Positions 3,963 through 32,124 of a stretch of DNA of 64,000 bases are shown here, one piece after another. The position numbers and the translations under genes were made by a program. The DNA comes from Candidatus Omnitrophota bacterium (GTDB taxonomy: Bacteria; Omnitrophota; Gorgyraeia; Zapsychrales; Zapsychraceae): contig JADFYJ010000013.1 of NCBI GenBank assembly GCA_015233115.1, positions 9,670 to 73,669 of the forward strand, written 5' to 3'. The number at the start of each line of letters is the position of its first letter. Position 1 is the stretch's first letter. The notes under the pieces are model-generated. The model was not told the origin of the DNA. It was given only the letters and a program-made list of their open reading frames with translations, and did no database searches.

Positions 3963-3964
3963 AT

Positions 3965-5574: not shown

Positions 5575-5588
5575 AAACGTTTTCCTTA

Positions 5589-9401: not shown

Positions 9402-10336
9402 AAACTTTGTCCCTCTTTAAAATGAATGAGTTGACGGAATAATTGTGCCGCTTCTGAAATATTATTCATCATGGTTTTCCGCTCTGTCACATGCGACAAA
9501 AAATATTTTAACTGTTCCACAAACATATCGTCCCGCTCAAACGGAAACACGCGGGATTCTTTATGGCCGCGTTGAAAAAAATCAATCCGCGCCGCCATTA
9601 AATCCGCCACCAAAGACTGATCCGGTAAATCAATCCGTATTTTCCTTTCCGGCGAAAAACTCATAAAATCCAAATGCACATTCACTCGAGTTTTTTCTGT
9701 AACCACCACAGCATCACAACAGTCTTCCGCGTCAACCGTTACTTCTGATAGGCGCTTGAGAGAACCATGTATCTGCGCGATTTTTCCAAATAGATATTCA
9801 ATATAATCAAATTCATGCGACAATTCCAAAACCACGCCGCCGCCTTTATCTTTAAACGCTGAATAAGACTGCAAATGATCCTGATTGGGCCGCCAATCTG
9901 GCAGATACGAACTCGCGTTCACGCTGACTTGCAAAATTTTTTTATCTTTCAGATATTCTTTCAAAAATACGATTGCCGGATGAAACCGGAGCACATAGCC
10001 GACATACGATAGAACTTTTTTTGTTTGAATGGTTTGTTCCAACACATCCAAGCCATCCAGCGAAGAACCCAAAGGCTTTTCTAAAAAAACCGGAACACCC
10101 ACATTCACGCACTCTTGAGCGGTTGAAACATGCAAAAACGTTGGGTTCGCAATCAAAGCCGCCTCTGGCAAATTTTGCCGAAACTCATCCCAAGACTGGA
10201 ACATGGGACCAGACCAATCCGTCGGTTCCTGGCCTTTAAAACTGCGAAAAGCCCAGAGTTCATGCCCACCTAACTGACGCAATAAACGCGTATGACGCTG
10301 TCCGATTGAACCTAAACCAAACACACATATCTTCAT
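9398..10336 (-). CDS. Gfo/Idh/MocA-family oxidoreductase, PtmF-like
   Basis: N-terminal MKICVFGLGSIGQRH Rossmann and EKP motif typical of Gfo/Idh/MocA. Confidence 0.7.
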   Translation of the reverse strand: MKICVFGLGSIGQRHTRLLRQLGGHELWAFRSFKGQEPTDWSGPMFQSWDEFRQNLPEAALIANPTFLHVSTAQECVNVGVPVFLEKPLGSSLDGLDVLEQTIQTKKVLSYVGYVLRFHPAIVFLKEYLKDKKILQVSVNASSYLPDWRPNQDHLQSYSAFKDKGGGVVLELSHEFDYIEYLFGKIAQIHGSLKRLSEVTVDAEDCCDAVVVTEKTRVNVHLDFMSFSPERKIRIDLPDQSLVADLMAARIDFFQRGHKESRVFPFERDDMFVEQLKYFLSHVTERKTMMNNISEAAQLFRQLIHFKEGQSL

Positions 10337-11394
10337 AACTTATATTCCAGCCGATCAATGGTTTTATGGTATTCTTCCCATTGCCCCACATCCATATACG
10401 ACTTCTCCGAAACAGGATAGACACTAATGTTCTCTCCTTTTTTCAACAATACCGCGATCAAATCCGGCATATCAAACGGTTTGCCTTTAGGGATATATTT
10501 CAAAGCTTTCTTGGATAAAATGTAAACACCTGTATTGACGGTAAAATCAATCTCAGGTTTTTCTTCGATATTTTGAATTTTTCCGTGTTCCTTAAAATGG
10601 ATCACTCCGTAGGGAATTTTATGATGCTGAATAGTTCCGACTACCGTTAATAAATTCTGGTATTTACGGTGAAAACTCAACAAATCCGCGTAATCCGCGT
10701 TGACGATCACATCGCAGTTAGACACAATAAAATTCTCCGCAATATCCGCTGGCAGCATTTTCAAACTTCCGGCTGTTCCTAAAAATTCTTTTTCCCACAA
10801 ATAATGAATTTTATATTTATGGTCGATATAGTCAAAATACACTTTGATCATTTCGCCTTTATAATTCATGGTTAAGAAAAATTCCGGCGCCCCTATAGCC
10901 GTAAACCGGTCAATGATCACTTCAATAATGGGTTTATCATTGACGGGGATCAACGCTTTAGGCAGGATCCGCGTAAACGGCCCCAAACGCTGGCCTTTTC
11001 CTCCGGCCATAATCACGACGGGAACATCAATTTTATTACGGGGAAACGTTGATTCAGACACCAAATCCATCCAGAAAAACACATTCACAATTTTTTTAAA
11101 TTCATCCACCACCGGCAAAGCTTCAATTTTTTCCCGCACCATTAATTCTTTGATAATATCCTGATCCGTACCCTTTAAAACACTCCGGGGTTTAGCATTA
11201 TAAACTTTCTCAATGGTGCCGTGCAAATTCCCCTGTCCCAACAAATAACGGCGGATATCACCGTCAGTCAGAACACCGCATAAAGCGTCATGCTTATCAA
11301 CGACAAATAAAATTTTTTCGCCGCCCTCGTCCATACGCCTTAAAGCTTCACGAACCGTTATTTTTTTGGTAATGATCAGTTGCTGGATATCCAT
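10333..11394 (-). CDS. Tandem-CBS-domain sugar-phosphate nucleotidyltransferase, PtmE-like
   Basis: N-terminal CBS pair (..GVLTDGDIRRYLL..) followed by the NTP-transferase motif VVIMAGGKGQRLGPFTRILPKALIPV. Confidence 0.75.
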   Translation of the reverse strand: MDIQQLIITKKITVREALRRMDEGGEKILFVVDKHDALCGVLTDGDIRRYLLGQGNLHGTIEKVYNAKPRSVLKGTDQDIIKELMVREKIEALPVVDEFKKIVNVFFWMDLVSESTFPRNKIDVPVVIMAGGKGQRLGPFTRILPKALIPVNDKPIIEVIIDRFTAIGAPEFFLTMNYKGEMIKVYFDYIDHKYKIHYLWEKEFLGTAGSLKMLPADIAENFIVSNCDVIVNADYADLLSFHRKYQNLLTVVGTIQHHKIPYGVIHFKEHGKIQNIEEKPEIDFTVNTGVYILSKKALKYIPKGKPFDMPDLIAVLLKKGENISVYPVSEKSYMDVGQWEEYHKTIDRLEYKL

Positions 11395-12606
11395 TTAGCT
11401 CACCTGTTGACGTAATTGCCATTTTTGATTAACTTGTTTCCACAAATGCGGCGGACGGGCCCGGTCTATTATTTCATAAAATTTCTGCTCTGTGACCCCC
11501 ATGTATTCCAAATTATCCCGGAAATATTGTTTGGGGAATTCACCGTCAAAACGCTTGACCAGCCTGACCCCTTCATCGCGGGTAATATGCCCGTTACGGA
11601 CTTCCTGCGCCGCATCGTAAGTCGCGCGGCCAATGCCGAATTTAATAAAATAAGTATAAAAGTGAAACCAGTCAATTTTGTCGTCAAGACTATTGTATTT
11701 GCTATAACTGCCTTCCGTTCTTTGGTCATTGGGATAAAAATCCGTATTTTCCACTGAATAATAATAGGCCCATTGCGGATCCCATCGTAAATAATAACCT
11801 AAATAATGGACTTCCATTTTTAAACTTTCCGCGGCTTCCGGCGCAATCGGCATATAAGGCTCAATATCCGCACGGGTGAGGCCGTAATCTGTAATAAGCT
11901 TTTTCGCGTTCACACCGCCTAAATAAATTTCTTCCAATCGCTGTTCATAGGTAAAAAATTTCGTACTGCGCGTAGCTTTGTCATTATCTTTAATCGGATT
12001 GCCGTATTCCGCCTCGTTTTCTCCATAAACCACTAAAGGAATTTTATAAAGCGACGCAACTTTCGGCGCCACATTTTTCTGCCCGATGATAAACGGCTGA
12101 AACGGGTGGACTAAATTTTCAAATGCCAATTTCGTGATCAAACGGTGCACTTTCTGGTTCGGCGTATACGTGATATTATCAAAGCCCGCGTTAACCCACG
12201 CCTCAAAATTTCTCCGGCCCGGAATTGTATAAAGGTGCGGCGCCCAGGTTACTAATAAAGGATTCATGTTGTATTTGTAACGCAGGACATGCGCGGCCAC
12301 AATGCTGTCTTTTCCGCCGCTCCCGGGAACTATACAATCATAATTTCCGTCCGGACTGCGGAATCGCGCCAGCATTTTATGCAATTCTTCTTCGCGTTCC
12401 TGCCAATTGATTGATTTTTTATTTTCCGCGTAACGGCAAGCCTCACACACTCCTTCATTATCAAAACCAATGGTGCGTTTTTTACTGCTTTCCGTATTCT
12501 TAAACTCAACCACTGAAGAAGGCCGTTGATTAGAAATGACACATTTTTTACAATATTTAACATCAACAGGCAATCCATACATGCCGAATTCCGCTTTTTG
12601 TTCCAT
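11395..12606 (-). CDS. N-acetyl sugar amidotransferase (PP-loop ATPase; PseA/WbuX-like)
   Basis: PP-loop VPGSGGKDSIVAAH and N-terminal Cys cluster (CKKCVISNQRP..CEAC); lies directly upstream of HisH/HisF paralogs. Confidence 0.75.
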   Translation of the reverse strand: MEQKAEFGMYGLPVDVKYCKKCVISNQRPSSVVEFKNTESSKKRTIGFDNEGVCEACRYAENKKSINWQEREEELHKMLARFRSPDGNYDCIVPGSGGKDSIVAAHVLRYKYNMNPLLVTWAPHLYTIPGRRNFEAWVNAGFDNITYTPNQKVHRLITKLAFENLVHPFQPFIIGQKNVAPKVASLYKIPLVVYGENEAEYGNPIKDNDKATRSTKFFTYEQRLEEIYLGGVNAKKLITDYGLTRADIEPYMPIAPEAAESLKMEVHYLGYYLRWDPQWAYYYSVENTDFYPNDQRTEGSYSKYNSLDDKIDWFHFYTYFIKFGIGRATYDAAQEVRNGHITRDEGVRLVKRFDGEFPKQYFRDNLEYMGVTEQKFYEIIDRARPPHLWKQVNQKWQLRQQVS

Positions 12607-12616
12607 AACTGTCCCT

Positions 12617-13222
12617 TTATATGCTTAAAAAATTATCAATAATTTTTAATCCATGCGTCCGGCTTTTTTCCGGGTGAAACTGCACGCCAAAAACCTGATC
12701 CCGCTCAACCACAGATACAAAACTATGATCTATGTAATTTGATAACCCTGCCACATCTTTATAATTAATAAACTCATAAGAATGCATAAAATAAAAAACA
12801 TCTTCAGCGGTCACTCCTTTTAAAATTTTAGATGGACGGATCACCTCCACATTCGCCCAGCCAATATGCGGGACCGGATGCTTGACCGGCATAAGCCTGA
12901 CTGCGCCTTCAAAATATTTCAATCCCGGGGTTTCGCCAAATTCATAACCAATCTCGGATAGAATCTGCATTCCCAAACAAATGCCTAACGTAGGTACTTT
13001 TAAAATTTTATCACGCAATTCCTGGTAAAACGGGGCAATGGATTCCATGGCGCCTTTGTATGTTCCTACGCCGGGAATAACAATTTTATCAACAGATTTC
13101 AAATCCTGACCGGATTTGACTACCACGATTTTGACCTCTTTTTTCGCCAGCTCAAACACTTTGCGGATATTAAAGATGTTTCCGGCTTGTCCGTAATCTA
13201 TCACTCCAATCACTTGGCTCAT
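12617..13222 (-). CDS. Glutamine amidotransferase, HisH paralog (WbuY-like)
   Basis: Class I GATase nucleophile motif GICLGMQ and FHPEKS. Confidence 0.8.
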   Translation of the reverse strand: MSQVIGVIDYGQAGNIFNIRKVFELAKKEVKIVVVKSGQDLKSVDKIVIPGVGTYKGAMESIAPFYQELRDKILKVPTLGICLGMQILSEIGYEFGETPGLKYFEGAVRLMPVKHPVPHIGWANVEVIRPSKILKGVTAEDVFYFMHSYEFINYKDVAGLSNYIDHSFVSVVERDQVFGVQFHPEKSRTHGLKIIDNFLSI

Positions 13223-13974
13223 AACGTCACCTCGATTTCCTGACTTAACAAATACTCTTTGATTTCGCGAATCGTGATGCGGTCATAGTGCAGCATGGAC
13301 GCGATACAAACCGCATTGACATTGCCATCTTTAATAACATCCCGGATGTGTTCCAATTGGCCGGCTCCGCCTGCGGCCACCACAGGCACTGACGCGATAG
13401 TAGAAATACCCGCCATGAGTTCCACATCAAAACCTTTTTGTCGTCCTTCAGTATCCACAGACGTTACTAATAATTCTCCAGCGCCTAAATCCTGGACTTC
13501 TTTCACCCAATCCATAACATCTTTCCCTGAAGGGATGCGGCCATAATCCGTGTAACATTCCCAACCGTCGCCTTTACGTTTGGCTTCAATAGAAACGGTC
13601 ACGCATTGGCTTCCAAAAATATGCGCGCAATCCCGGATCAACTGCGGGTTAGCAATAGCCGCGGTATTTATAACCACTTTATCTGCCCCGCAATGCAGTA
13701 ACCGAGCCACATCATCCGTCGTGCGAATTCCTCCGCCCACGCAAAAAGGCGCGACAATGCTTTTGGCCGTCTGCTCAATATACTCAAACAAAATCTCTCT
13801 TTGGTATAAACTGGCTACCGCGTCAATATAAAAAATTTCATCCGCGCCCTGCCAATAATACTTCTCAGCCAGAGCTTCAGGCTGACCCATTTTCCGCAGT
13901 CCTTCGAAATGAACTCCTTTGATCACATAGGGAGGTTTCACATCCAGGCGAGCGATCACACGTATTTTAGACAT
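13219..13974 (-). CDS. Imidazole glycerol phosphate synthase cyclase-subunit paralog, HisF-like (WbuZ-like)
   Basis: (beta/alpha)8 HisF signature regions RVIARLDVK..GADEIF..VGGGIR..AAGGAG. Confidence 0.8.
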   Translation of the reverse strand: MSKIRVIARLDVKPPYVIKGVHFEGLRKMGQPEALAEKYYWQGADEIFYIDAVASLYQREILFEYIEQTAKSIVAPFCVGGGIRTTDDVARLLHCGADKVVINTAAIANPQLIRDCAHIFGSQCVTVSIEAKRKGDGWECYTDYGRIPSGKDVMDWVKEVQDLGAGELLVTSVDTEGRQKGFDVELMAGISTIASVPVVAAGGAGQLEHIRDVIKDGNVNAVCIASMLHYDRITIREIKEYLLSQEIEVTL

Positions 13975-15148
13975 TCACTAACTCCTTGTTCAAATCATAG
14001 AATTCTTTTTTTAAAATTCCTTCTAAAGAAATTTTTTTTAATATTTTAACAATTTTAACAGCAGTCCCGCCTTTGCCATAAATATTCTTCACCAATTTTA
14101 ACTGACTCTGAAATGACGGAGAATACAAACGCTGTAAAGCCTTTTGGATCGATACGGTTTGCGGGCCGCAATCAATGATACTAGATGAACGCAGACGTCC
14201 AGCCTGACGGTCACCGATATTGACTGTCCCAATCTTGAAACTCGGCGCTTCCACAATTCCGCTCGAAGAATTTCCCACCACCCCATCCACATATTGCATC
14301 ATGGACAAATAATTCAACTGACCCAATGAAGTAAAAACTCTGGTATGACCTGGATGCCCCTCAACATACTTTTCAATGAGTTGGTTAATAACTTGACCAT
14401 CTGTATCCGCGTTAGCTTTGGTAAAAAACACCATGGTCTCTTTTAGTCCATTCAAAGCCTGCAAAAGGTTCTGGCATTGTTCAGGGGCCGTATTATTTTC
14501 CAGAGTCACCGGATGAAACGTCACCAGCAAATTATGTGGTGCAAATTTTAATTTCAAATTTCTCTCTAATTCATCCTTGGACAACAATTTCAATAATTTC
14601 AAATTATCTAAACCCAAAGCCCCCACATTAAAAACACGTTGAGGATTTTCTCCTAATTGAATAATTCTCCGCCGATAAACATCCGTGGCCGCGAAATGCA
14701 CGCTCGCCATCTTGGTGATGGAATGACGGATTGGTTCATCAATCAGTCCAAACGTTGATTCTCCGCCGGAAATATGCGCGATAGGGATCCGGCTGACCAT
14801 CGCGGCTGTAGCCGCTGCCAAAGCTTCAAATCTGTCGCCTAAAATAACCAACATATCCGGATTCAATTTTTTCAAAGCTTGCGCGTATCCTTCCACCCCT
14901 CTGGCCATTGAGCGGCAAATGCCCACCGGAGAATCATCTCCCAAATGGAGGTCAACTTTCGCGTCAATCGAAAATCCATCTTGAACAATCTGCTGATACG
15001 TCATTCCAAATTTCTTGGATAAATGCGTGCCTGAGACCAATAACTGTAAATCAAAAGCAGAATCTTTGCTTAATTCCTTAAGAAGAGGGAATAGCAAACC
15101 ATATTCCGCCCGCGTCGCGGTAAACACGCAGATTGTCCGCTTTCTCAT
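13967..15148 (-). CDS. Hydrolysing NDP-N-acetylglucosamine 2-epimerase (NeuC/LegG family)
   Basis: N-terminus ICVFTATRAEYGLL and overall NeuC-like length of 393 aa. Confidence 0.8.
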   Translation of the reverse strand: MRKRTICVFTATRAEYGLLFPLLKELSKDSAFDLQLLVSGTHLSKKFGMTYQQIVQDGFSIDAKVDLHLGDDSPVGICRSMARGVEGYAQALKKLNPDMLVILGDRFEALAAATAAMVSRIPIAHISGGESTFGLIDEPIRHSITKMASVHFAATDVYRRRIIQLGENPQRVFNVGALGLDNLKLLKLLSKDELERNLKLKFAPHNLLVTFHPVTLENNTAPEQCQNLLQALNGLKETMVFFTKANADTDGQVINQLIEKYVEGHPGHTRVFTSLGQLNYLSMMQYVDGVVGNSSSGIVEAPSFKIGTVNIGDRQAGRLRSSSIIDCGPQTVSIQKALQRLYSPSFQSQLKLVKNIYGKGGTAVKIVKILKKISLEGILKKEFYDLNKELVNV

Positions 15149-15864
15149 AATTTATCCTTTTTGCGGATTTCCAAAATAGTGGCGTCATAAATTAACCCCA
15201 TCCCATTGATAAATTTACGGCCTTCCGGAGTTATCATAGTCCAGCTGCGGATCGGATCTTCCTGCGGAACCAGATCAAAAGGCAAATGGAATTTATCGAT
15301 GTGAGAAATTTTCATATTCATCTCATCCAATACTTTTTTAACCGTCTCCAATGAATGATTATTATACCCATATTCAAAATTTTGATTATATTTATTGTTG
15401 CGGTATATGGTCCGCACATCCACATCAAACGTGTTAAATAATCCTAAAATAAAAATGACACCGTTATTTTCTAAATGATTCCGTAAATTTAAAAGCGGCT
15501 GATGGATATCATCAAAAAAAGATAAAACACCGGACATGGTGATCACATCAAATTTCTGGTTGAGCTGAAAATTCTCCGCTTTCCCGCATTGAAAGGCCAC
15601 CCCTTTTAATCCGGCGAATCGTTGCGCTGAATCAATCAATCCCTGACTATAATCAACTCCGGCTATATGTTTTATCTTTAATCCGGATAAATGTTTCAAA
15701 TAATATAAAAACTCCCCCCGGGCACAACCCACATCCAAGACTGAAAATTCATGGTTTGGGTATACCCCGCGGATTTTTTCACCCATGCATTTAAACATTT
15801 CTTTAGGTTTTGAATAATAATCTTCATTCAAATAGATGTATTGACTTTGATAATTGTCCGCCAT
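15145..15864 (-). CDS. Class I SAM-dependent methyltransferase
   Basis: Motif I VLDVGCARGEF. Confidence 0.6.
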   Translation of the reverse strand: MADNYQSQYIYLNEDYYSKPKEMFKCMGEKIRGVYPNHEFSVLDVGCARGEFLYYLKHLSGLKIKHIAGVDYSQGLIDSAQRFAGLKGVAFQCGKAENFQLNQKFDVITMSGVLSFFDDIHQPLLNLRNHLENNGVIFILGLFNTFDVDVRTIYRNNKYNQNFEYGYNNHSLETVKKVLDEMNMKISHIDKFHLPFDLVPQEDPIRSWTMITPEGRKFINGMGLIYDATILEIRKKDKL

Positions 15865-15866
15865 GT

Positions 15867-16541
15867 CTACCGCCAGATTTGTTTAATCATCATAAAAGAT
15901 TCTGCTGCCTTGCATCCTGCTGTCGCTCCTCTGAACGTGGCGAGCGCGCGAATATTTTCTTCACTGCGGGGAAATGGACTCTCTCCGATTTCTCCTGAAT
16001 ATATCTTCATAATTCTGACCTTATCCTCAATAAAACCATCCATATTGACAAAATAATTCGGCACAAAAGTCTTTCCTTCATGCGCCGGAGCAAACTCTGT
16101 TTCGCTGAGAGTTTCCATCATATACAGCGTCTTTATAAACGGATAGCGAAATATTTTAGTACAACTATAGATCTGGTCAAACGCCATGCGATGATCGCTA
16201 TGCACATCATACATAAAAGGCAAATAAATAATTTCCGGTTTAATCTGCTGAAAAACTTCTTGCACCTTTTCAATGAACAGATGCGGCGAAACAGTATCTA
16301 ACTTACGGGTAGGAAAATTCAGTTGAAAGGTTTGAGACATGCCAAACTCTGAGGCAACCTGTTCAATTTCTTTGTTCCGCGCCGCGATTTGCTCGGCCTT
16401 ATACCCTTCCTCTTGGCGCATAGCCGTCACAATCAGCCAATACACCTGATCGCCAGCTTGGCGGTGTTTTAATATGGTTCCTCCGCACCCTAAGGTTTCA
16501 TCATCCGGATGAACCGCGACGACTAAAACATTCTGACTCAT
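15867..16541 (-). CDS. PIG-L/LmbE-family de-N-acetylase
   Basis: VVAVHPDDETLGCGGT zinc-binding signature. Confidence 0.75.
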   Translation of the reverse strand: MSQNVLVVAVHPDDETLGCGGTILKHRQAGDQVYWLIVTAMRQEEGYKAEQIAARNKEIEQVASEFGMSQTFQLNFPTRKLDTVSPHLFIEKVQEVFQQIKPEIIYLPFMYDVHSDHRMAFDQIYSCTKIFRYPFIKTLYMMETLSETEFAPAHEGKTFVPNYFVNMDGFIEDKVRIMKIYSGEIGESPFPRSEENIRALATFRGATAGCKAAESFMMIKQIWR

Positions 16542-17419
16542 AAATAATCCCCTTTTTTTGGAAGGATTTTAAATTCATGCTCAACCAAACATATAGCGCC
16601 TTCACAACAACGCACGGTGATCTGCCCATTATCGACATTCAATATTTTCCCGAATTCATCATTTCCTGAACCCATTTCAATTTCCCGGACCCGCCAAATT
16701 TTAATTTCTTGCCCCTGATATAACAAATGCGCTCCCACGTAAGGCTTGGTTAAGGCTCGGACTAAATTATAAATCGCTCGGCTGTTCATGCAGAAATGAA
16801 TCTGTCCATCCCAGGCTGCGCGCTTACGCCAAACATTGGTTTGGTCCCGGTCTTGTTTTATTCGAGGACAGTTCCCCTGCTTTATAAGTGGAATAAACTG
16901 TTCCATCTGGCTGATCGCGGTTTGAGTGACCTTATCATACAAGGTCCTCGCGTCATCTTCATAACAAATCGGAATCTTAACTTGATTAATGATATCTCCG
17001 GTATCCGCGCCCTCATCCATAAAAAAGAACGTCGAGCCAGTTTCTTTCAAACCCAAGGCCAAAGCCCATATCAGGGGATGACGTCCCCGGTTTTGCGGAA
17101 GCAAAGCCGGATGAAATCCTATAACACCCTGCGGAGCTATTGACAAAAATGTTTTTTTTAACATCTGCGAATTCCCCAAACTCATCACGATATCTGGACT
17201 CAAGGATCTCATCCAATCCAACGCGGCCGCATCATTAAAATTCTCAGTTACCAAACAAGGGATATTCTGTTCCCGGCAAAATACCGTTAAATCACAAAAA
17301 TCCGCGTTAAAAGCAGACGATGGGCAAGTGACCACGCCCACCACCTCGGCTTTTAAAGCTACCAATTTGGCCAAAGCCTTTAAACTAAACTCCACATATC
17401 CGGCAAAAATAATCCTCAC
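16538..17419 (-). CDS. Formyltransferase (Fmt/ArnA-like sugar N-formyltransferase candidate)
   Basis: N-terminal Rossmann MRIIFAG, catalytic HPALLPQNRG motif, and a C-terminal Fmt-like domain. Confidence 0.75.
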   Translation of the reverse strand: MRIIFAGYVEFSLKALAKLVALKAEVVGVVTCPSSAFNADFCDLTVFCREQNIPCLVTENFNDAAALDWMRSLSPDIVMSLGNSQMLKKTFLSIAPQGVIGFHPALLPQNRGRHPLIWALALGLKETGSTFFFMDEGADTGDIINQVKIPICYEDDARTLYDKVTQTAISQMEQFIPLIKQGNCPRIKQDRDQTNVWRKRAAWDGQIHFCMNSRAIYNLVRALTKPYVGAHLLYQGQEIKIWRVREIEMGSGNDEFGKILNVDNGQITVRCCEGAICLVEHEFKILPKKGDYL

Positions 17420-18447
17420 GATTTGATCACCTCATCCGCTTTAAAATCCTGCTGTGCTTTCCGTCCCATAATACGATCCCATAACATCGGATTTAATCCT
17501 GTACCAGGGCGTTTAACAGTTAAATTCTCCGGAGAAAAAATTTCACCTTTACGGATATTCACCCGGGCCACAATACTTTTCCGGATAATTAATTTATTCT
17601 TTTCTTCCGTTAAAGAGGGCTTTTTAACTCCATTCCCCATCGCTTCTTCCACATGCCGGATCGCCTTCACTAATTGTTGTAATTCCTGCGGATTCAAAGA
17701 CGCTTGATGATCCGGGCCATCCATAGTTTTGTCCAGGGTAAAATGTTTTTCGATCACTTGTGCCCCTAAAGCCACAGCCGCTAAAGCCACTTCGATACCT
17801 TCCGTATGATCTGAATATCCAACTTTCACGCCTAAGGATTGACCGATCGTAACCATAGCGCGTAAATTCACATCTTTAAATACAGCCGGGTATTCCGTAC
17901 AACAATGCAGTACGGTAATATTTTTCTTCACTGTTCCGGCTTGGACTAAAATTTCAACAGCCGTTTTGATTTCTTTTAAAACTGCCATACCTGTCGATAT
18001 AATAATCTTTTTCTTTAGCTTTCCCATTTTCCGCAAATACGGCAGATTGGTAATTTCTCCTGACGGAATTTTAAGAATTTTTAATTTCAAACGATTTAAT
18101 AAATCAATACTGGGCAAATCAAAAGGCGATGAAATAAACTCAACTCCTTTGTTCTGTGCATAACGCAAAAGGTCCTCATGCTGTTGTTCATTCAATTGAA
18201 ACCTACGCACCATATCCAAAAAACTTTCTTGCTGATCCGTATGACGCAATTGGTAGGACGCTTTAGGAGTGGACTGACACATCACTTCTTCCGGCCTAAA
18301 GGTCTGAAATTTCACAGCATCAACACCGGCGATAGCCGCCTGATCAATCAGGTTTTTCGCCAATTCGATCTGACCATTATGATTAACACCGATCTCAGCG
18401 ATAATAAACACCCGTTTATCATTCAATTTATGCTTTAGCATTTTCAA
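17416..18447 (-). CDS. NeuB-family nonulosonic acid synthase (copy 1, LegI-like by context)
   Basis: FIIAEIGVNHNG, the TIM-barrel block and a C-terminal antifreeze-like domain. Confidence 0.8.
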   Translation of the reverse strand: MKMLKHKLNDKRVFIIAEIGVNHNGQIELAKNLIDQAAIAGVDAVKFQTFRPEEVMCQSTPKASYQLRHTDQQESFLDMVRRFQLNEQQHEDLLRYAQNKGVEFISSPFDLPSIDLLNRLKLKILKIPSGEITNLPYLRKMGKLKKKIIISTGMAVLKEIKTAVEILVQAGTVKKNITVLHCCTEYPAVFKDVNLRAMVTIGQSLGVKVGYSDHTEGIEVALAAVALGAQVIEKHFTLDKTMDGPDHQASLNPQELQQLVKAIRHVEEAMGNGVKKPSLTEEKNKLIIRKSIVARVNIRKGEIFSPENLTVKRPGTGLNPMLWDRIMGRKAQQDFKADEVIKS

Positions 18448-21178: not shown

Positions 21179-22296
21179 TATCTAACTCCAACAATATTTC
21201 CTTTAAAACCTCTCGATAGATAATCTTCGCGGATAACTGGATAAAACGTTTCCGGGACGATAAAGATTTGTTCAAAGTTGCCGGAAAACACATTTTCAGA
21301 TTTTAAGACTTTTTTACCGAAATAAATTTGCCCCTGCTTGCTGGTGTCATTATCAACCAGCATAAAATCAAAATTTATATCACACCATTCCAAAATATTC
21401 TTGAGCGTATTGCTCGCTCCGTGGACAGCGCCATGTTTTATTTTCAATAAAGCGCTGATACGTTCCAGCGTCAGGCTTAATTTGTTTTCATAATTGCTAT
21501 AATCTCTTTTGGACGCGACATTAACAGACTGCCCCTGAAACTCAGCCAAAGCGTGATATTCATCCTGATATTTCACTAAATTTTTCAAAACAAAACCATT
21601 CCGCTCAAAAAATAATTTTAAGGACGCATCCGTAAAATATTGAATATGCTGGTGCATAAACAGCGCCGGAGATCCCGTCTCTAAATAATAATCCGCGTTA
21701 TTCACGGAAATAAAGACTTGGCCTTGCGGCGCTAAATGACGACGAATAAAATCCATAAATCCTTCCAGGTCTTCCACATGATCCAACACATCAAACGCGT
21801 AAATAAAATCAAATTTCCGGGACAGATTCAAGTTCCGATCCGCAAAAGCTTTGACAAAATTTATGCCATCGGCAATGCCCGCTGTTTTCAAAGACGGTTC
21901 AATTCCGGTCACATCCTGAATTCCCTGCGACTTTAAGAACCGCAATATATAACCCTTATCACAGCCGATTTCTAAAGCAGACTGAAATGCCGTAATATCC
22001 ACCAGCCGGTTAAAATGCTTAAGGATTTTTTCGCCCCGTTCTTTGCCCCAATTCCCTTCTCCCATGGATACAGACAACTGCGCGGCACAAGACGTATAAA
22101 TATCCGCGAGCGCTGAACGCAATTCTGGAGTCACCTTCTCATAGACGTGGCCGCAGGCTAAACATTGAAATAATTGACACGGAAATTTACCAGCAGATGA
22201 GTTATGGTCATCCGGCGTATTCGTCGCAATCGAAGCCGCAGGCTGGTCTAATATCATTTGAGCTTCCCGGTTTCCACACGCATAACAACGCATCAA
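21178..22296 (-). CDS. SAM-dependent methyltransferase with N-terminal Zn-ribbon (NDP-sugar C-methyltransferase-like architecture)
   Basis: N-terminal CxxC..CxxC pairs, a class I MT core (LEIGCDKGYIL) and a C-terminal extra domain, as in TylC3/NovU-type C-methyltransferases. Confidence 0.55.
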   Translation of the reverse strand: MMRCYACGNREAQMILDQPAASIATNTPDDHNSSAGKFPCQLFQCLACGHVYEKVTPELRSALADIYTSCAAQLSVSMGEGNWGKERGEKILKHFNRLVDITAFQSALEIGCDKGYILRFLKSQGIQDVTGIEPSLKTAGIADGINFVKAFADRNLNLSRKFDFIYAFDVLDHVEDLEGFMDFIRRHLAPQGQVFISVNNADYYLETGSPALFMHQHIQYFTDASLKLFFERNGFVLKNLVKYQDEYHALAEFQGQSVNVASKRDYSNYENKLSLTLERISALLKIKHGAVHGASNTLKNILEWCDINFDFMLVDNDTSKQGQIYFGKKVLKSENVFSGNFEQIFIVPETFYPVIREDYLSRGFKGNIVGVR

Positions 22297-23399
22297 TTTC
22301 TCCGGTCTAAAATTTTAATCAATTGACGGGCAATGTTCACAACATCTTCTTCCTGATTCAAAGTTGAAGACGGCAAGCATAACCCTTTTTCAAATACCTG
22401 ATACGTGTTGGGAAAGCCCGACCGGCCGTTTTCTGAAAACATCGGAAATTCCGTGACTGGCATAAAGAATCTTCGGGTAGGAATCCCCTGTTCTTTTAAC
22501 TGATTTTGAACACTGGCCAAATCTTTATGATCAGGAATGAGCACACTATTGAGCCACCAGGTACTTTGCGCTTTTGGTACTTCTCTTTGAAAAATAATAT
22601 TTTTAAAACCACTCAGCTCATCCTGATAAATCTCATGATATCTTTTTTTCTTTTGTAAAAATTCCTTTAAACGGTCCATTTGCGCGAGGCCTAATGCCGC
22701 TTCCAGATTTGTCATCCGATAATTAAACCCCATTTCCGGGTGAAAATAACCGCGGCTTTCATCCCGGCCTTGGTTCACTAAAAACCGGATATGGCTGATG
22801 CTGTCTTTATCTTTTCCTAAAATCATCCCGCCACCGCCTGTGGTCATGATTTTATTACCATTAAAACTAAAACAACCCAAATCACCCAATGTCCCAGTCA
22901 TGCGGCCGTCAAAACTTGCCCCTAAACTTTCCGTCGCGTCTTCAATAACAAACAGCTTGTGACGTTGTGCTATTTCCAGAATCTCCTTCATGGCGCAGGG
23001 ATTACCAAATAAATGCACAGGAATGACAGCTTTAGTTTTAGGCGTAATGACTTGTTCCATTTTTTTAGGGTCAATATTCCACGTCATTAAATCAATATCT
23101 GCCAACACTGGCGTCGCCCCCACATAAAGAATTGGATTTATTGACGCCACAAACGTCAAGGCCGGAACAATCACTTCATCCCCAGGCCCAATCCCGAGTT
23201 GATAGAGCGCCATATGCAGTGAAGCGGTTCCGCTTTGCGTCGCGACCGCCCACGGAGAGCCCATCCATTCCGCGAAACGTTGTTCAAATTGCGGGATAAA
23301 CGGACCGACTGTTGAAACATAGCCAGAATCAATGGCTTCGCACAAATAGCGTTTTTCCAGGTCACCTAAATTGGGGGCATCTAAAAATATTTCAGACAT
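22293..23399 (-). CDS. DegT/DnrJ/EryC1-family PLP-dependent sugar aminotransferase (LegC/PseC-like)
   Basis: Fold-type I aminotransferase blocks and PLP lysine motif SFNGNK. Confidence 0.8.
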   Translation of the reverse strand: MSEIFLDAPNLGDLEKRYLCEAIDSGYVSTVGPFIPQFEQRFAEWMGSPWAVATQSGTASLHMALYQLGIGPGDEVIVPALTFVASINPILYVGATPVLADIDLMTWNIDPKKMEQVITPKTKAVIPVHLFGNPCAMKEILEIAQRHKLFVIEDATESLGASFDGRMTGTLGDLGCFSFNGNKIMTTGGGGMILGKDKDSISHIRFLVNQGRDESRGYFHPEMGFNYRMTNLEAALGLAQMDRLKEFLQKKKRYHEIYQDELSGFKNIIFQREVPKAQSTWWLNSVLIPDHKDLASVQNQLKEQGIPTRRFFMPVTEFPMFSENGRSGFPNTYQVFEKGLCLPSSTLNQEEDVVNIARQLIKILDRRN

Positions 23400-24390
23400 T
23401 GTAAATTCCTGATTTGTATCCCTGGATGTTTTTCGACTGACGAAACCATGCTATGGTTTCATTGAGACCGTCTTGTAAAGCGCAAGCAGGACTCCATCCG
23501 GTTATTTGTTTTAATTTAGCATGGCTGCCATATAAGCGTTCAACTTCGCTTAATTTAGGACGAAGCCGGTCTTGGTCTTCTTCAATCCGGGCTGATGATC
23601 CCATTAATGTAATAATATTCTGCGCCAAATCTCTAATCGAAATTTCCGATTGAGTGGCAATATTTATATCCTGGCCTATGGCCTGATCTGCTTTGGCGAT
23701 TTCTATGAAACCTTGAACAGTATCTTTCACATAAACAAAATCTCTGGTCGGATGAACTGCTCCTAATTTAATCTGTTTAACTCCCGAAAGCAATTGACAA
23801 ATGACCGTAGGTATAACCGCGCGCGCAGACTGTCGTGGCCCATAAGTATTAAAAGGGCGCACCATGGTCACTGGCAAATCAAAGCTGCGGAAAAATGACT
23901 CAGCTAAACAATCCGCGGCAATCTTGGTCGCGGAATAAGGCGACTGCGGCTGACGTTTATGATTTTCATCAATCGGAACATATTGCGCGGTACCGTACAC
24001 TTCCGACGTTGAAGTCACTAAAACCCGCTTCACTTTAAGATCTTTAGCCGTCTGGAGAATGTTTAACGTGCCTTTAACATTGGTATCAATATAACTATCC
24101 GGAGAATGATAACTAAAAGGAATACCGATCAAGGCAGCCAAATGAAACACGATATCCACGCCTTGCATGGCTTGACGCACGCCATTCGGGTCGCGGATAT
24201 CGCCCGCGAAAATCTCAATCTCCTTGAGCTGTTCCGGAGCTAAAGTATCGAGCCATCCCCAGCTATTAAAGGAATTATAATAAACAAACGCCCGGACCTG
24301 ACAGCCTTGTTTTAAAAGCGCTTCAGTCAAATGAGACCCAATAAAGCCATCCGCTCCGGTCACTAAAACTTTTTTATGCGCAAGATCCAT
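23392..24390 (-). CDS. NAD-dependent NDP-sugar 4,6-dehydratase (LegB-like extended SDR)
   Basis: VLVTGADGFIGSHL, YSATK catalytic motif, directly upstream of the aminotransferase. Confidence 0.75.
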   Translation of the reverse strand: MDLAHKKVLVTGADGFIGSHLTEALLKQGCQVRAFVYYNSFNSWGWLDTLAPEQLKEIEIFAGDIRDPNGVRQAMQGVDIVFHLAALIGIPFSYHSPDSYIDTNVKGTLNILQTAKDLKVKRVLVTSTSEVYGTAQYVPIDENHKRQPQSPYSATKIAADCLAESFFRSFDLPVTMVRPFNTYGPRQSARAVIPTVICQLLSGVKQIKLGAVHPTRDFVYVKDTVQGFIEIAKADQAIGQDINIATQSEISIRDLAQNIITLMGSSARIEEDQDRLRPKLSEVERLYGSHAKLKQITGWSPACALQDGLNETIAWFRQSKNIQGYKSGIYNV

Positions 24391-24399
24391 AATGTCCTT

Positions 24400-26250
24400 T
24401 CAATTTATCCCCGCTAATTGATATATATAATCCTTCATACGGTCAATGGCTTTGTCATCATCATACGCGTCAAAACTGCGAATATCTTGTTTAGAAATAA
24501 TATCCTTACAACGAACTTTACCTGCTAAAACCGCGTCGATCTGAGCAAATAGTTTATCTTTATCATCAAACACAATTTGATTGAAATATTTGTTAGCTAA
24601 CAAATGTTGACAGTTGCCAGTCTGGTCATAATAAAATGCGTCATATCCACAAATTAACGCGATGGTTGCCGGAGTATTGATCGACATGTTGATAGACACA
24701 TCTGACAGACCTAAAATATTCTCAAAAGGATAAAGGGTGTCAACGACTACAAAATTTTTTAAAAGTTTTAATGCATCGGTAATTTTATTTAACCGCGGCA
24801 TATCCGCAGATAAAACCATATCCCATGGCTTGCAACTTTTAGGTTTTAAAACAATAACATCCTCTGGGTGTTTTTGGGCGTATTCCAGTATCACGCTGAG
24901 ATAATTGATATAAATCTCTTCAGGAATATTGGAATCATTACTAAAAGACGTGTCAAAAAAAGTGATGATTTTCCCTTGAAATGAATGACCTGTGATGTTT
25001 CCGCGCAATTGCTGCCTTTCTTCAGGAGAAAACCGGCAACCTGCCTTATAAACACACCCAATCTTCACTTTTTCATCCACGTAAAAAGTGTGTCCGTAAA
25101 CATTAAAAGTGTTATCCCCCCAGGACATATAAACATTATGCGCAGCGAATGATAAAACCGGATCTTGATAAGCCGTCAAATCACTCCAATTCACAATAAC
25201 ATTTTTTGTGCCATATTTATTCAAAACTATCGTCAAAATCACATCGTCATGATCGGAATGCGAAAGATGAACCTTTCCATCAAAATGGTTCATAAAATTC
25301 TCAAAATAAAACGCCCGATTATGAAATAACAAGGTGTCACTCAACATAAAAGTTTTATTTTTTAACGCATAACCTAAAAAAGTCACGGCCGGAGTCAAAA
25401 AATAACGCGAAACAATCTTTAAAAAATTTTGATTAATATTAATTTTTAACATTCTCAACCGCGCGGTTTGATAACCTTTTTCCTGAGCGTTTCGTAAAGC
25501 CAAATTACGTCCTTCGCTCTGATCTTCGAGCGCGTAAAACAAAACATCTTCTTTTTTAATCTTAGAGCTTTCCACAAAAAAATCATCATTCAAATATTTT
25601 CGTTCAAACCCAGTAACGCTTTCTTTGATAAACAAGAATTTTTTCCGTTGCTGGTTTAAAACAAAACCCCTGCGGACAAAATTCAGGATCATCTTGCCAT
25701 AGTACATTCCTAGCAATAAAAATGAGGCATGGGAATTTATAAACTCAATTCTCACCTTTAAACCATAATGCTCCATGAAATATTGGGTTACAAAATCATT
25801 GAGCGGCGTCCGCACCATAACCAAGGTTGGTTCTTCTAAAAAATCCCTTTTCAATAAGTGCAAATGTTTTAATACCGCAAAAATTTGGCGAGACATCTGT
25901 TTTTTGACAAACGCCTCTACTTTGTTCGTCTGATAAATACGGTTATACCGTGTAATAAAATAATCATAATCCGGGCTGTGCTGCTTATAATATAAATCCA
26001 AAACACGCATAGTTTCTTCAGACAAATCATACCACAACCCTATGGTCTTAGCCCCCACCGATGGCAAGATCGAAACAGATTGCTCAAAATATTTTTTACC
26101 CCCAGGCAATTTCCGGAAAAATGATCCAAGCTTAGACGGGATCCCGGGATAAAAAACCGAAACTTTGTATCCTTTTCTCCACGCCCGAAACATGACTTGG
26201 GCATTTTCAACCAAATCGTTTCCTAAAATTAATATGTAATTGTTTGGCAT
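24400..26250 (-). CDS. Large uncharacterised protein, putative ulosonic-acid/capsule transferase (possible KpsC/KpsS-like fold)
   Basis: 616 aa with no recognisable GT-A/GT-B motifs; C-terminal region resembles capsule-synthesis (KpsS/KpsC) proteins only weakly. Confidence 0.35.
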   Translation of the reverse strand: MPNNYILILGNDLVENAQVMFRAWRKGYKVSVFYPGIPSKLGSFFRKLPGGKKYFEQSVSILPSVGAKTIGLWYDLSEETMRVLDLYYKQHSPDYDYFITRYNRIYQTNKVEAFVKKQMSRQIFAVLKHLHLLKRDFLEEPTLVMVRTPLNDFVTQYFMEHYGLKVRIEFINSHASFLLLGMYYGKMILNFVRRGFVLNQQRKKFLFIKESVTGFERKYLNDDFFVESSKIKKEDVLFYALEDQSEGRNLALRNAQEKGYQTARLRMLKININQNFLKIVSRYFLTPAVTFLGYALKNKTFMLSDTLLFHNRAFYFENFMNHFDGKVHLSHSDHDDVILTIVLNKYGTKNVIVNWSDLTAYQDPVLSFAAHNVYMSWGDNTFNVYGHTFYVDEKVKIGCVYKAGCRFSPEERQQLRGNITGHSFQGKIITFFDTSFSNDSNIPEEIYINYLSVILEYAQKHPEDVIVLKPKSCKPWDMVLSADMPRLNKITDALKLLKNFVVVDTLYPFENILGLSDVSINMSINTPATIALICGYDAFYYDQTGNCQHLLANKYFNQIVFDDKDKLFAQIDAVLAGKVRCKDIISKQDIRSFDAYDDDKAIDRMKDYIYQLAGIN

Positions 26251-30311: not shown

Positions 30312-30372
30312 TTTTCATCCTTTTTACTGGTCGGAATTCCACCGAGAGTGATCACTTCATACCTGACCCCTT

Positions 30373-32124
30373 TTATCGACATAACGCTTTGACAGTATTT
30401 TTCCAATCTATGAGCCAGTCATTTTTTACTAAAGCAAAACGATCACAAAATTCTTTCCTGGCCATTTGCACTTTTTCTGTGAGCCACCATTGTTTAGGAT
30501 CATGAAAAACTTCCTGAATTTTAAGCGCTGCTGACAAGGGATCTTTGAACAATATACCGGCTGTTCTTAATTTTTCATAATAGGGTTCGGACTCGGGTCT
30601 CATGAGAAACACATTATGATCCCAAAACAAAATACACGGCACATTCATGACCAATGCTTCCAAATATGACGTCGACGGATGATCAATAAATACCATTTTG
30701 CATTTTGATAGTCTATCCGTCAATAAGCCCTCGCGAATAAATTTGATTGGCGGGCACATGTCTTTGATTTTTTCCTCTTCACCCCAGCCCCAGTCAACAC
30801 TGTAACATCTATAGGATAAATTATTTTTAATTTCATCAGGGAGATGGCTGATAAATTGTTGCTTATTGATAAAATATTCTGGCACATCATCCGCGGATAA
30901 CTCAGCATCAAAGCGAAGATAATAACGGGCAGCACCCGTTCCTACCATGATACATTCATCGGATTGCTGTTTATGGATGTCTTTCAGACGGCATAAATAA
31001 GGATTTGTTAAAGATTTAGTATTCGATTGTTTTTTATCCCATCCCCAAGTAAAAAAAATATCTTTTTGTAAAGCAAATTGTTCAAAAAAACAACTATGGG
31101 ACCCGCCAAATCCCCCCCCATGCTGGAATTCCATTAATTGAGCGCCGTTTCGCATTGCTTCAGCCGCAAAAAATTTAAACGGCTCATTATATCCCCACCC
31201 AAACGCTGAACCGACAGCTTTGATATGAGAACCGTTCCTATTTTTTAAAACACATTCCCTATTTGAGCTATAACCCTCTAAATAAACTTTAGGTAAGGCT
31301 TTAGGTATTAATCCAGTAAAATATTGTTCAAAACCACTTGGACGGACAAAATTGATCGAAAAATCTCTCAAGGCCTTATTATAAAGAGATGGGGAAAATG
31401 CTTTTGGGAATATGTTCCTAAAACTTAAAGCCGTTAAACCGGTTTGAATTTTTAACCTTAATTTATCTTTAAAACTCAAATGTTGGGTTTGATTCAACAC
31501 AATTTTTCCCGGAAAAACCTGATCAATACCTCTTAAAATAAAATTACTTAAGTTTAATTTCGAAGACTTTTGCTCTAAATTTTTTTTTGTATTCCATGGC
31601 ACGTCTAAAAGTTTTTTTAATTTATGGGGGAAAAAATGCTGACAAATATCAGTATACAAATTCGCGTTGAAACAATCATCATTATTTAAAAAATAAACAA
31701 AATGAATCGTATCATTTATTTGTAAAAAATCATCTGAAACAGCAACCCCATTAATGAAACCGTCCGGATATTGCGCAAAAGCATTATCCAGTCTTTTATA
31801 TCGATCATAAACAACATGAATAAAAGATAATAACCATGGCCCCAATAAAATCTGCCAATAACGATCAGAAAAATTTACCTGATGAATCTGGTTGAGTTCT
31901 CCCGCTAAAAGCGGCAGAATTTGTTGATAGACCTCATAACAATAATCGGCCGCCTCTTTGATTCTGGTTGTGGGCCTCCAGGGTGTGGGAATAATTTGAC
32001 CATGATGTTCTTCATAATATTTTTTACACGCCGGATCCGTTAAACACCACAAACCTAAAACCAATAGTTTTTGTTGTTTTTCCCACGTAGACAAATGCGG
32101 CGTTATGGCTATAAACGATGACAT
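30373..32124 (-). CDS. Large uncharacterised putative transferase (resembles the LIC12162-type family found beside NulO genes)
   Basis: 583 aa with no GT-A/GT-B motifs. Family resemblance is from memory of that family's typical context and not verifiable here. Confidence 0.35.
   Translation of the reverse strand: MSSFIAITPHLSTWEKQQKLLVLGLWCLTDPACKKYYEEHHGQIIPTPWRPTTRIKEAADYCYEVYQQILPLLAGELNQIHQVNFSDRYWQILLGPWLLSFIHVVYDRYKRLDNAFAQYPDGFINGVAVSDDFLQINDTIHFVYFLNNDDCFNANLYTDICQHFFPHKLKKLLDVPWNTKKNLEQKSSKLNLSNFILRGIDQVFPGKIVLNQTQHLSFKDKLRLKIQTGLTALSFRNIFPKAFSPSLYNKALRDFSINFVRPSGFEQYFTGLIPKALPKVYLEGYSSNRECVLKNRNGSHIKAVGSAFGWGYNEPFKFFAAEAMRNGAQLMEFQHGGGFGGSHSCFFEQFALQKDIFFTWGWDKKQSNTKSLTNPYLCRLKDIHKQQSDECIMVGTGAARYYLRFDAELSADDVPEYFINKQQFISHLPDEIKNNLSYRCYSVDWGWGEEEKIKDMCPPIKFIREGLLTDRLSKCKMVFIDHPSTSYLEALVMNVPCILFWDHNVFLMRPESEPYYEKLRTAGILFKDPLSAALKIQEVFHDPKQWWLTEKVQMARKEFCDRFALVKNDWLIDWKNTVKALCR

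Follow-up and report, generated by a model that had tools for sequence, protein, structure and literature searches.

INTRODUCTION

Few transferases for bacterial sialic-acid-like sugars such as pseudaminic acid (Pse) and legionaminic acid (Leg) have been identified. We describe here a candidate encoded in a 64,000-nucleotide stretch of a Candidatus Omnitrophota contig (GenBank JADFYJ010000013.1), the whole of which is called the window below. The gene specifies a 616-residue protein of the PFTS family (PF27878) and lies within an operon that is a very large nonulosonic acid (NulO) cluster.

Published knowledge of bacterial NulO transferases is scarce (PMC5420450, 2017). Described examples include Tanf_01245 and TFUB4_00887 of Tannerella forsythia, whose orthologue in strain 92A2 is BFO_1060 (PMC5420450). 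The S-layer O-glycan loses its terminal Pse or Leg derivative when Tanf_01245 or TFUB4_00887 is deleted and regains it on complementation. These proteins have about 445 residues, resemble TagB and the GT-B class of glycosyltransferases (GTs), carry D/E-D/E-G and HP motifs, adjoin genes for cytidine monophosphate (CMP)-activated NulO, and were originally flagged as TagB-like (PMC5420450). A (K/R)XHP motif is conserved in sialyltransferases (GT29, GT38, GT42, GT52 and GT80) and in the retaining transferases of 3-deoxy-D-manno-oct-2-ulosonic acid (Kdo); its His binds the CMP phosphate and its Pro stacks on the cytosine (PMC12887879, JBC 2026). A CMP-ulosonate is the donor of the retaining β-Kdo transferases (GT99 WbbB, GT107 KpsC/KpsS and GT140 KrkA), a group of highly diverged sequences whose GT-B fold is modified and contains helical insertions (PMC12887879).

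The PFTS family is catalogued but has no assigned function or structure, and the present protein is a divergent member of it. A literature search returned no paper for PF27878 or for 'PFTS motif', and for 'LIC12162', the name of a second family encoded in the same operon, one unrelated genome paper. Three independent lines of evidence support the reading that the protein is a CMP-NulO transferase, to which we assign a probability of roughly 0.6: its relatives are found in NulO loci, they are fused to CMP-sugar synthetases, and some of them cross-match the BFO_1060 family model. The first-pass annotation of the window had proposed the protein as a candidate for transfer of an activated NulO or ulosonate; together with a predicted GT-B fold, these three lines uphold the proposal and make such an activity probable.

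RESULTS

The protein and its family

The gene is an open reading frame (ORF) with an ATG start and a stop codon that occupies exactly 24400..26250 on the minus strand. Its product is 100% identical to protein HQL26_07720 of a Candidatus Omnitrophica metagenome-assembled genome (MAG) at NCBI. The 616-residue protein reported in the first-pass annotation is confirmed by the ORF, by this identity, by the 414 relatives described below and by a model with a mean predicted local distance difference test score (pLDDT) of 94.6. No transmembrane helix is predicted (maximum 19-residue hydropathy 1.09).

An exhaustive HMMER search was required to expose the family, since a word-indexed search across 5.8 billion proteins, even with profiles, yielded no more than the protein itself and P0002, which is 33% identical. 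The precomputed tag PF27878.1 'PFTS_polysacc' is attached both to P0002 and to P0001, the identical protein. The exhaustive search of 1.84 billion representatives retrieves 414 clusters at E<=1e-3, of which 104 reach E<=1e-30. Members are mostly 580-650 residues long, align end to end with the target and are spread across uncultured phyla (Omnitrophota, Planctomycetia and Actinomycetota); no PFTS relative was found in a plasmid collection. Residue counts and family-model counts given here come from a 74-member alignment of relatives. TIGR04417, 'polysaccharide biosynthesis PFTS motif protein', is matched by 43 of the 74 (best E 2.9e-17), the scores shown all being below its 100-bit cut-off. 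The target shares with the family the PF27878 tag, the end-to-end alignment and the conserved residues, and differs from it in having no TIGR04417 match at E<=10 and in reading H-L-L-A for H-P-F-T/S.

Five of the 74 relatives match NF046086, 'BFO_1060 family glycosyltransferase' (best E 8.7e-14), and four match TIGR04396, 'surface carbohydrate biosynthesis protein'. In relative P0104 the models TIGR04417, TIGR04396 and NF046086 all align to one C-terminal stretch (residues ~490-618) with scores far below their cut-offs; NF046086 gives 24.5 bits over profile positions 255-363 of 365. The PFTS relatives thus cross-match the BFO_1060 family in the C-terminal nucleotide-binding segment. These sub-threshold matches are the only connection of PFTS proteins to a characterised enzyme and amount to a superfamily-level link rather than membership. 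Like the target, the T. forsythia enzymes are GT-B-like and are encoded beside a CMP-Pse/Leg biosynthesis locus (PMC5420450). The target is longer (616 against ~445 residues), with a large N-terminal extension, and has K-P-K for K-x-H-P.

The sole Pfam signal of the target is PF07388, alpha-2,8-polysialyltransferase (14.2 bits, E 0.032, residues 408-513). Because the protein falls outside every characterised transferase family that could be tested, it is best treated as belonging to its own family. A PDB match to CFA/I fimbriae was rejected, as the 47-residue match was inflated by a tandem-fusion construct. The Pfam, NCBIfam and PDB searches gave no confident homology to a non-transferase family; such a homology is what the first-pass annotation had named as counting against a transferase.

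Relatives are encoded in NulO loci

Family members were examined in 18 distinct loci drawn across the sequence clusters of the family (L012 is a second copy of L011); the related genome loci were retrieved with a 5-sequence alignment. MAGs of Omnitrophota, Planctomycetia and Actinomycetota supplied eight of the 18 as genome loci, and in each of these NulO-pathway genes flank the homologue. Every locus with readable neighbours (L001, L003-L010, L011, L013, L014/L015 and L018-L020) contains NulO-pathway or associated sugar-modification genes. Nine loci extend for 8 kb or more to at least one side of the PFTS gene; eight of these contain a NeuB gene, a PF02348 (CTP_transf_3) gene or both, and the remaining one, L019, contains DegT, HisH/HisF and acetyltransferase genes.

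The order in which a 4,6-dehydratase gene, and in most cases an aminotransferase gene, follows the PFTS gene recurs in six other loci (L004-L008 and L020). The dehydratase comes directly after PFTS in L004-L007 and is 62-66% identical to that of the window. A DegT aminotransferase is next in L004-L006, while in L007 a radical S-adenosylmethionine (rSAM) enzyme gene stands between the two; across these four loci DegT is 54-59% identical to that of the window. L008 keeps the same order with weaker matches (27% and 34% identity). L020 shares with the window the order rSAM, DUF4910, GNAT, rSAM-SPASM, methyltransferase, rSAM-SPASM, LIC12162, then has an ATP-binding cassette (ABC) exporter where the window has rSAM, MBOAT and DUF1574, and resumes with PFTS, dehydratase, DegT and NeuB. 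The contexts of distant members are similar in content. For P0125 (E 4.6e-19), PtmE-like, NeuB, Epimerase_2, GFO and CTP_transf_3 genes come directly before and a GT2 gene after. P0035 is part of a Pse-type set (dehydratase, DegT, PFTS, rSAM, CTP_transf_3, PseG-like, acetyltransferase, NeuB). P0104 is followed by an FkbM methyltransferase gene and a TIGR04326-like gene; the window operon, too, has members of both families. A LIC12162-family gene accompanies PFTS in L020, and a TIGR04326-like gene does so in L014.

L013, L018 and L011 have the canonical Leg- or Pse-type enzyme set even when PFTS is not counted, so PFTS is surplus to biosynthesis there. In L004-L007 PFTS is the sole transferase-like gene beside the NulO genes.

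Three further features of these loci were observed. An ABC exporter (ABC_membrane plus ABC_tran) lies directly upstream of PFTS in L017 (628-2397) and L020 (8202-10004) and nearby in L011 (18707-20509), a hint that some lineages may export the product through an ABC transporter. Tandem PFTS paralogues of 664 and 632 residues are present in L015 (64-3949), and one Omnitrophota MAG (bin.93) has two PFTS copies on separate contigs (L004 and L010) with different NulO-modification genes beside each; such paralogues are consistent with one transferase per sugar variant. An MptE-like gene (Maf-type, PF01973; L001 3241-4278) is found just downstream of the closest homologue, P0002, so two types of candidate NulO transferase can share one locus.

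Fusions to CMP-sugar synthetases

Ten members are much longer than 600 residues or are extended at the C-terminus, and nine of the ten have a C-terminal domain of PF02348 (E 5e-24 to 4e-36), to which the CMP-NulO and CMP-Kdo synthetases belong. The longest arrangement is a triple fusion, P0037 (L011 10001-13504; 1167 residues), in which PFTS is followed by a CMP-NulO synthetase and a C-terminal PseG-like domain; the latter matches the PseG-like half of the window ORF at 43173-44795 with E 3e-18. A NeuB gene comes directly after the fusion gene, which is present on four contigs from NCBI, JGI, ENA and Logan. Its domain order mirrors the gene order beside the unfused relative P0035 (PFTS ... CTP_transf_3, PseG-like). 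The coexistence of both domains in P0037 shows that PFTS is not itself the PseG-type hydrolase. Fused and unfused members are intermingled: P0068 is closest to the unfused P0051 (56% identity), while its closest fused relative is 46% identical, so the link between PFTS and the synthetase was made or broken more than once. Through the fusion, the PFTS module is tied to the CMP-activated sugar.

Predicted fold

AlphaFold2 with the 74-sequence alignment gives a model with mean pLDDT 94.6 and a predicted template modelling (TM) score of 0.94, in which the pLDDT is at least 90 for 553 of the 616 residues. The protein is confidently predicted to have a two-Rossmann GT-B fold with an interdomain cleft. 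The earlier statement that there is no recognisable GT fold therefore holds for sequence motifs and families and fails for the predicted structure. Foldseek with the full model gives 101 PDB matches at E<=1e-3, and the best 50 of the 101 are all GT-B. The top matches are Staphylococcus aureus TarL with cytidine diphosphate (CDP)-ribitol (8va1, 1.6e-7), TagF (3l7m, target-normalised TM-score (TMt) 0.56-0.59) and the capsule polymerase Cps3D (8qoy); lower-ranked ones include OtsA, TreT, GT4 enzymes, glycogen synthase, LpxB, SPY and WecB-type epimerases. The alignments with TagF and TarL cover ~500 of the target's 616 residues. Together with Cps3D, these two rank first as structural neighbours of the full-length model (E 1.6e-7 to 1.4e-6) and share the two-Rossmann GT-B architecture, but identity is ~11%, TM-scores are 0.34-0.59, no PF04464 match exists and no CDP-polyol genes are nearby. 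TagF, TarL and Cps3D use CDP-activated donors, with CMP as the leaving group.

The N-terminal half of the model presumably comprises an N-terminal extension and the portion of the GT-B fold that faces the acceptor, and the C-terminal Rossmann domain is presumably the half that would bind the nucleotide donor. When the C-terminal 221 residues are modelled alone, they match GT-B C-domains in a generic way, with 62 PDB matches at E<=1e-3, 3beo (a WecB/MnaA-type epimerase) at rank 1, Cps3D reaching the best query-normalised TM-score (TMq, 0.63) and TagF and WecB 0.59. We rejected this C-domain ranking as a guide to the GT-B subclass, since it is generic (WecB, OtsA, TarL, TagF, Cps3D) and does not separate sialyltransferase-like from TagF-like proteins.

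Conserved residues

Residues Trp377 and Lys471 are invariant in the 74-member alignment, and Gly378, Gly398, Asp433, Asp517 and Phe561 are at least 90% conserved. The target retains Trp377, Lys471, Gly378, Gly398, Asp433 and Asp517. The positions of the conserved segments are given in Table 1. In the acidic loop, Asp222, Asp223 and Asp235 are kept in 59, 63 and 61 of the 74 sequences; position 227 is Asp in 65 and Glu in the target. This loop is a candidate for the catalytic base or the acceptor site. In the K-P-K-S segment, position 471 is Lys in 74/74 and position 469 is Lys or Arg in 72/74. K-P-K seems to occupy the topological position of (K/R)XHP with Lys for His, an assignment made from topology and not from superposition. 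The weak PF07388 match spans this segment. The S516...G535 region coincides with the stretch in which TIGR04417, TIGR04396 and NF046086 align on P0104. A strand, a loop and a helix N-terminus are the typical phosphate-binding element of GT-B C-domains. Positions 549-552 read H-L-L-A in the target, while across the family His is found in 57/74 and Pro in 62/74; the H-P-F-(T/S) motif at this site is the probable source of the name 'PFTS'. K459-H460-P461 was considered as an HP motif and rejected: neither 460 nor 461 reaches 60% in the family, and the tripeptide sits at a helix end.

Table 1. Positions in the window of the target gene, its segments and related features of the operon
Feature	Position	Strand	Basis
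Complete ORF; PFTS-family (PF27878) GT-B-fold protein, candidate CMP-nonulosonate transferase	24400..26250	-	ORF, family, AF2 (AlphaFold2) model
N-terminal half, aa 1-399, alpha/beta, helical insertions 72-136 and 276-320	25054..26250	-	AF2 model
C-terminal Rossmann domain, aa 400-616	24403..25053	-	separate AF2 model, pLDDT 96.2
Acidic loop, aa 222-235, consensus DDF.VDG..I...D, coil in model	25546..25587	-	column conservation
W355-S356-D357, kept in 55, 58 and 60 of 74	25180..25188	-	column conservation
W377-G378 (W 74/74, G 73/74), end of strand 373-376 near interdomain region	25117..25122	-	alignment + model
F431-F-D433-T-S-F436, after first C-domain strand; D433 71/74	24943..24960	-	alignment + model
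K469-P470-K471-S472, end of second C-domain strand (465-469)	24835..24846	-	alignment + model
S516-D517...T526-P-A-T529-I-A-L-I-C-G535, strand-loop-helix N-terminus	24646..24705	-	alignment + model
H549-L550-L551, degenerate copy of family H-P-F-(T/S) motif	24598..24606	-	alignment
Two genes directly downstream of target: RmlB-like 4,6-dehydratase (23392-24390) and DegT aminotransferase (22293-23399)	22293..24390	-	Pfam
Leg/Neu-type NulO gene set, presumed donor source	8694..18447	-	Pfam/NCBIfam matches
CMP-synthetase in Leg/Neu-type set	8694-9401	-	PF02348
NTP-transferase+CBS in Leg/Neu-type set	10333-11394	-	
NeuC-type hydrolysing epimerase	13967-15148	-	TIGR03568
NeuB in Leg/Neu-type set	17416-18447	-	
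LIC12162-family protein, second candidate transferase	30373..32124	-	TIGR04331, 397.7 bits, above 225-bit cut-off
TIGR04326-like 'surface carbohydrate biosynthesis protein', truncated ORF, third candidate transferase	2..1249	-	TIGR04326 below threshold

The operon of the window

The target gene is embedded in a run of ~46 same-strand genes (roughly 1-47590), with intergenic gaps of 5 nt upstream and 9 nt downstream. The operon contains two NeuB genes (the one in Table 1 and 41427-42488), three PF02348 CMP-sugar synthetase genes (3965-4738, 42494-43198 and that of the Leg/Neu-type set) and the NeuC-type hydrolysing epimerase, which matches TIGR03568 with 473.7 bits. The Leg/Neu-type set also has a GFO oxidoreductase and a WbuX/HisH/HisF amidotransferase set. 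Elsewhere in the operon are three DegT aminotransferases, formyl-, methyl-, carbamoyl- and acetyltransferases, several radical-SAM enzymes, an MBOAT protein and a Wzx-type flippase (6357-7883). The RmlB-like dehydratase together with the NeuC-type, NTP-transferase+CBS and GFO genes lets us offer, as a weak guess, a Leg-type derivative as the donor. Other family members sit in Pse-type loci, and the PDB matches of the adjacent dehydratase are generic RmlB-like extended short-chain dehydrogenases/reductases (Bacillus thuringiensis Pal best) that do not separate Leg from Pse.

The G+C minima of the operon are the 2-kb bins 24001-26000 (0.371, PFTS) and 30001-32000 (0.358, LIC12162-family), against ~0.41 elsewhere. 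Low G+C is common for glycan-specific transferase genes that are swapped among strains.

A Pfam scan of 46 operon ORFs matched no GT-A or GT-B glycosyltransferase family, in agreement with the first-pass annotation, which had found no classical one. The same annotation had described three large proteins as uncharacterised. Pfam indeed gives no match for the ORF at 2-1249 (1-1249 in that annotation) or for 30373-32124, but NCBIfam places the two with TIGR04326 (sub-threshold) and TIGR04331. Like PFTS, LIC12162 (TIGR04331/PF27859) and TIGR04326 are uncharacterised 'surface carbohydrate' families; their members in this operon are candidate NulO transferases with no detectable sequence relation to the target. 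The NCBIfam TIGR models of this group take their names from Leptospira locus tags. BLASTP relates the target to none of the other large operon proteins (E>0.1), and hhalign against the LIC12162-family and TIGR04326-like proteins gives E 0.23 and 0.27 (~0.2-0.3% probability); paralogy among the large unassigned proteins was thus ruled out as far as these two methods detect it. A fourth large unassigned ORF (43173-44795) has a cytidylyltransferase-like N-terminus and a PseG-like domain. PseG itself has a GT-B fold.

A sub-cluster of HpcH-aldolase, HAD, 2-hydroxyacid-dehydrogenase and CMP-synthetase genes is found at 2407-6353. Three PF02348 genes plus a fourth cytidylyltransferase-like domain, three unrelated candidate transferases, two NeuB genes and the HpcH sub-cluster suggest up to three different CMP-activated acidic sugars in the operon, each with its own transferase.

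Several other features of the region were noted. Upstream of the target, a DUF1574-like gene of ~346 codons (26256-27296, minus strand) is split by a single in-frame TAA (26853-26855) into two same-frame ORFs of 147 and 190 residues; the interruption may mark a pseudogene, a split gene or an error in the assembly. The MBOAT gene (27361-28803) precedes the DUF1574-like gene, and the pair is reminiscent of AlgI/AlgJ-type O-acylation systems. In both the window (40129-41427, minus strand) and L020 (968-2263), the NulO genes include a conserved one for a DUF4910/DUF2172 aminopeptidase-like protein that ends in a winged-helix domain, and GNAT (Acetyltransf_6) and rSAM-SPASM genes adjoin it. Just outside the glycan operon, a TonB-dependent receptor gene (47781-49814) is directly preceded by a cobalamin riboswitch (RF00174, 49867-50024, minus strand, 49.1 bits, E 3.1e-9) in a typical BtuB-like layout; the nearby operon itself encodes B12-binding radical-SAM enzymes.

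DISCUSSION

We propose that the protein is a soluble or peripheral GT-B glycosyltransferase of the PFTS family whose C-terminal Rossmann domain would bind a CMP-activated NulO made by its own operon. The large N-terminal half would hold the acceptor, a glycan or a glycoconjugate, to which the sugar would be moved with release of CMP. In such an enzyme the invariant Lys471 of K-P-K may take the contact with the CMP phosphate that His makes in (K/R)XHP, and the S516-D517...T526-P-A-T529 element may serve as the phosphate-binding helix N-terminus. The catalytic base or contacts to the sugar might be supplied by Asp222/Asp223, Asp357 and Asp433. The wider proposal has slightly less than an even chance in our estimate: that PFTS/PF27878 is a new GT family and a candidate new CAZy family transferring Leg or Pse from CMP donors, with Lys replacing the His of (K/R)XHP, a second H-P-F motif on a different loop and, in some members, activation and transfer in one polypeptide, with or without PseG.

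Several observations weigh against CMP-NulO transfer. Where the canonical (K/R)XHP motif would be expected, the protein has K-P-K-S instead, and if the eponymous P-F-T-S motif is correctly assigned to positions 549-552, the target has it in degenerate form. By sequence, the target falls in no characterised GT family. The PF07388 score stays below the gathering score of 23.3 bits, and only one of the 74 members shows a match of any kind to that family. NCBIfam returns nothing for the target at E<=10; this includes NF046086, whose 200-bit cut-off is far from reached by the relatives. No real match came from searching the PDB with the sequence by itself, with profiles of 2 and 74 sequences, or with only the C-domain. 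No GT38, GT52 or GT80 sialyltransferase is among the best 50 fold matches of the full model or of the C-domain, and matches with similar TM-scores include WecB-type UDP-GlcNAc 2-epimerases, which are not transferases. Global TM-scores are modest (0.3-0.6) and identities ~10%, values that also suit a family whose sequences have diverged far and which has helical insertions and an extended N-terminus. No initiating phosphoglycosyltransferase, polymerase, flagellin or acceptor gene was recognised in the window. Pathway enzymes also fuse to one another, as the cytidylyltransferase-like and PseG-like domains at 43173-44795 illustrate, so context and fusions do not strictly separate transfer from a late biosynthetic step.

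The GT-B sialyltransferases (GT38 NeuS/SiaD, GT52, GT80 PmST1) have the fold in common with the target and use the donor type proposed here, but the target reaches PF07388 only below threshold and lacks (K/R)XHP. The GT99, GT107 and GT140 enzymes carry (K/R)XHP and a nucleophilic Asp, and their structures are likewise absent from the best 50 fold matches. Maf/MptE-like proteins (PF01973) are proposed NulO transferases in NulO loci and belong to a different fold family; the target has no PF01973 match at E<=10, and none was found among the scanned operon ORFs. The families to which the first-pass annotation had pointed (GT52, GT80, GT99, GT107 and Maf-type) consequently do not accommodate the protein, which is set apart from GT99 and GT107 by the missing (K/R)XHP.

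If the fold is taken by itself, the donor could be another nucleotide sugar, since many matches are enzymes that use uridine, adenosine or guanosine diphosphate (UDP, ADP, GDP) sugars (OtsA, GT4, glycogen synthase). The protein would then build or extend the glycan that receives the NulO, or glycosylate the NulO, and the LIC12162-family or TIGR04326-like protein would transfer the NulO itself. The absence of (K/R)XHP, the two other candidate transferases in the operon and the co-occurrence of PFTS with a LIC12162-family gene (L020) or a classical GT2 gene (L013, L018) are in line with such a role. We nevertheless find it rather unlikely: the recurrent fusion is to a CMP-sugar synthetase specifically and to no UDP- or GDP-sugar enzyme, PFTS is alone as a transferase-like gene in many NulO loci such as L004-L007, the best full-length structural neighbours use cytidine-nucleotide donors, and relatives cross-match the Pse/Leg transferase model. 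Those same neighbours raise the question of a TagF/TarL-like phosphotransferase or polymerase that places a CDP-alcohol or phospho-sugar into a teichoic-acid-like or phosphodiester-linked surface polymer containing or accompanying NulO. TarL, TagF and Cps3D are the top full-length matches, Cps3D has the highest C-domain TMq (0.63), and the T. forsythia transferases were likewise first flagged as TagB-like (PMC5420450). However, neither the target nor any of the 74 relatives matches PF04464, no TagD- or TarI/TarJ-type genes for CDP-glycerol or CDP-ribitol synthesis occur among the scanned operon ORFs, and the nucleotidyltransferases fused to or beside PFTS are of the CMP-ulosonate type (PF02348). 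The replacement of the TagF-type motif His by Lys, as mapped here from topology, would also be unexpected, and we regard this alternative as quite unlikely.

The probability is of the same low order for a biosynthetic GT-B enzyme, either a nucleotide-sugar hydrolase/2-epimerase resembling NeuC, LegG or PseG, or an enzyme acting on a nucleotide-linked intermediate of a modified NulO. WecB/MnaA-type epimerases are among the best fold matches (3beo being first for the C-domain), biosynthetic genes flank the target gene and pathway enzymes do fuse to CMP-synthetases; PF02350 (UDP-GlcNAc 2-epimerase/NeuC) is matched by one of the 74 relatives at 7.4e-6 but not by the target itself. This role is, however, already filled in the window by a bona fide NeuC/LegG and a PseG-like protein, P0037 holds PFTS and PseG-like domains in one polypeptide, and L013 and L018 have Epimerase_2 or PseG besides PFTS. 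The recurrent CMP-synthetase fusions speak against this role as they do against the two before it. A special case of CMP-NulO transfer would be the processive synthesis of poly-NulO, in the manner of the polysialyltransferases NeuS/SiaD. The only Pfam signal of the target is to PF07388, its top structural matches TagF, TarL and Cps3D are polymerases, and the ABC exporter that adjoins PFTS in L017 and L020 and lies nearby in L011 recalls ABC-dependent capsule systems. With PF07388 sub-threshold and seen in 1/74 members, and with no KpsMT/KpsCS-type genes found in the window, the chance of a polymerase is slimmer still. CMP-NulO transfer remains the reading that we prefer.

If this reading is true, several hundred 'hypothetical' proteins in NulO loci would gain a testable function, and the surface-glycan pathways of uncultured phyla such as Omnitrophota would become easier to interpret. 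The natural transferase-synthetase fusions would provide one-protein tools for chemoenzymatic pseudaminylation or legionaminylation. The change of His to Lys would mean that (K/R)XHP is not obligatory for the use of a CMP-ulosonate donor.

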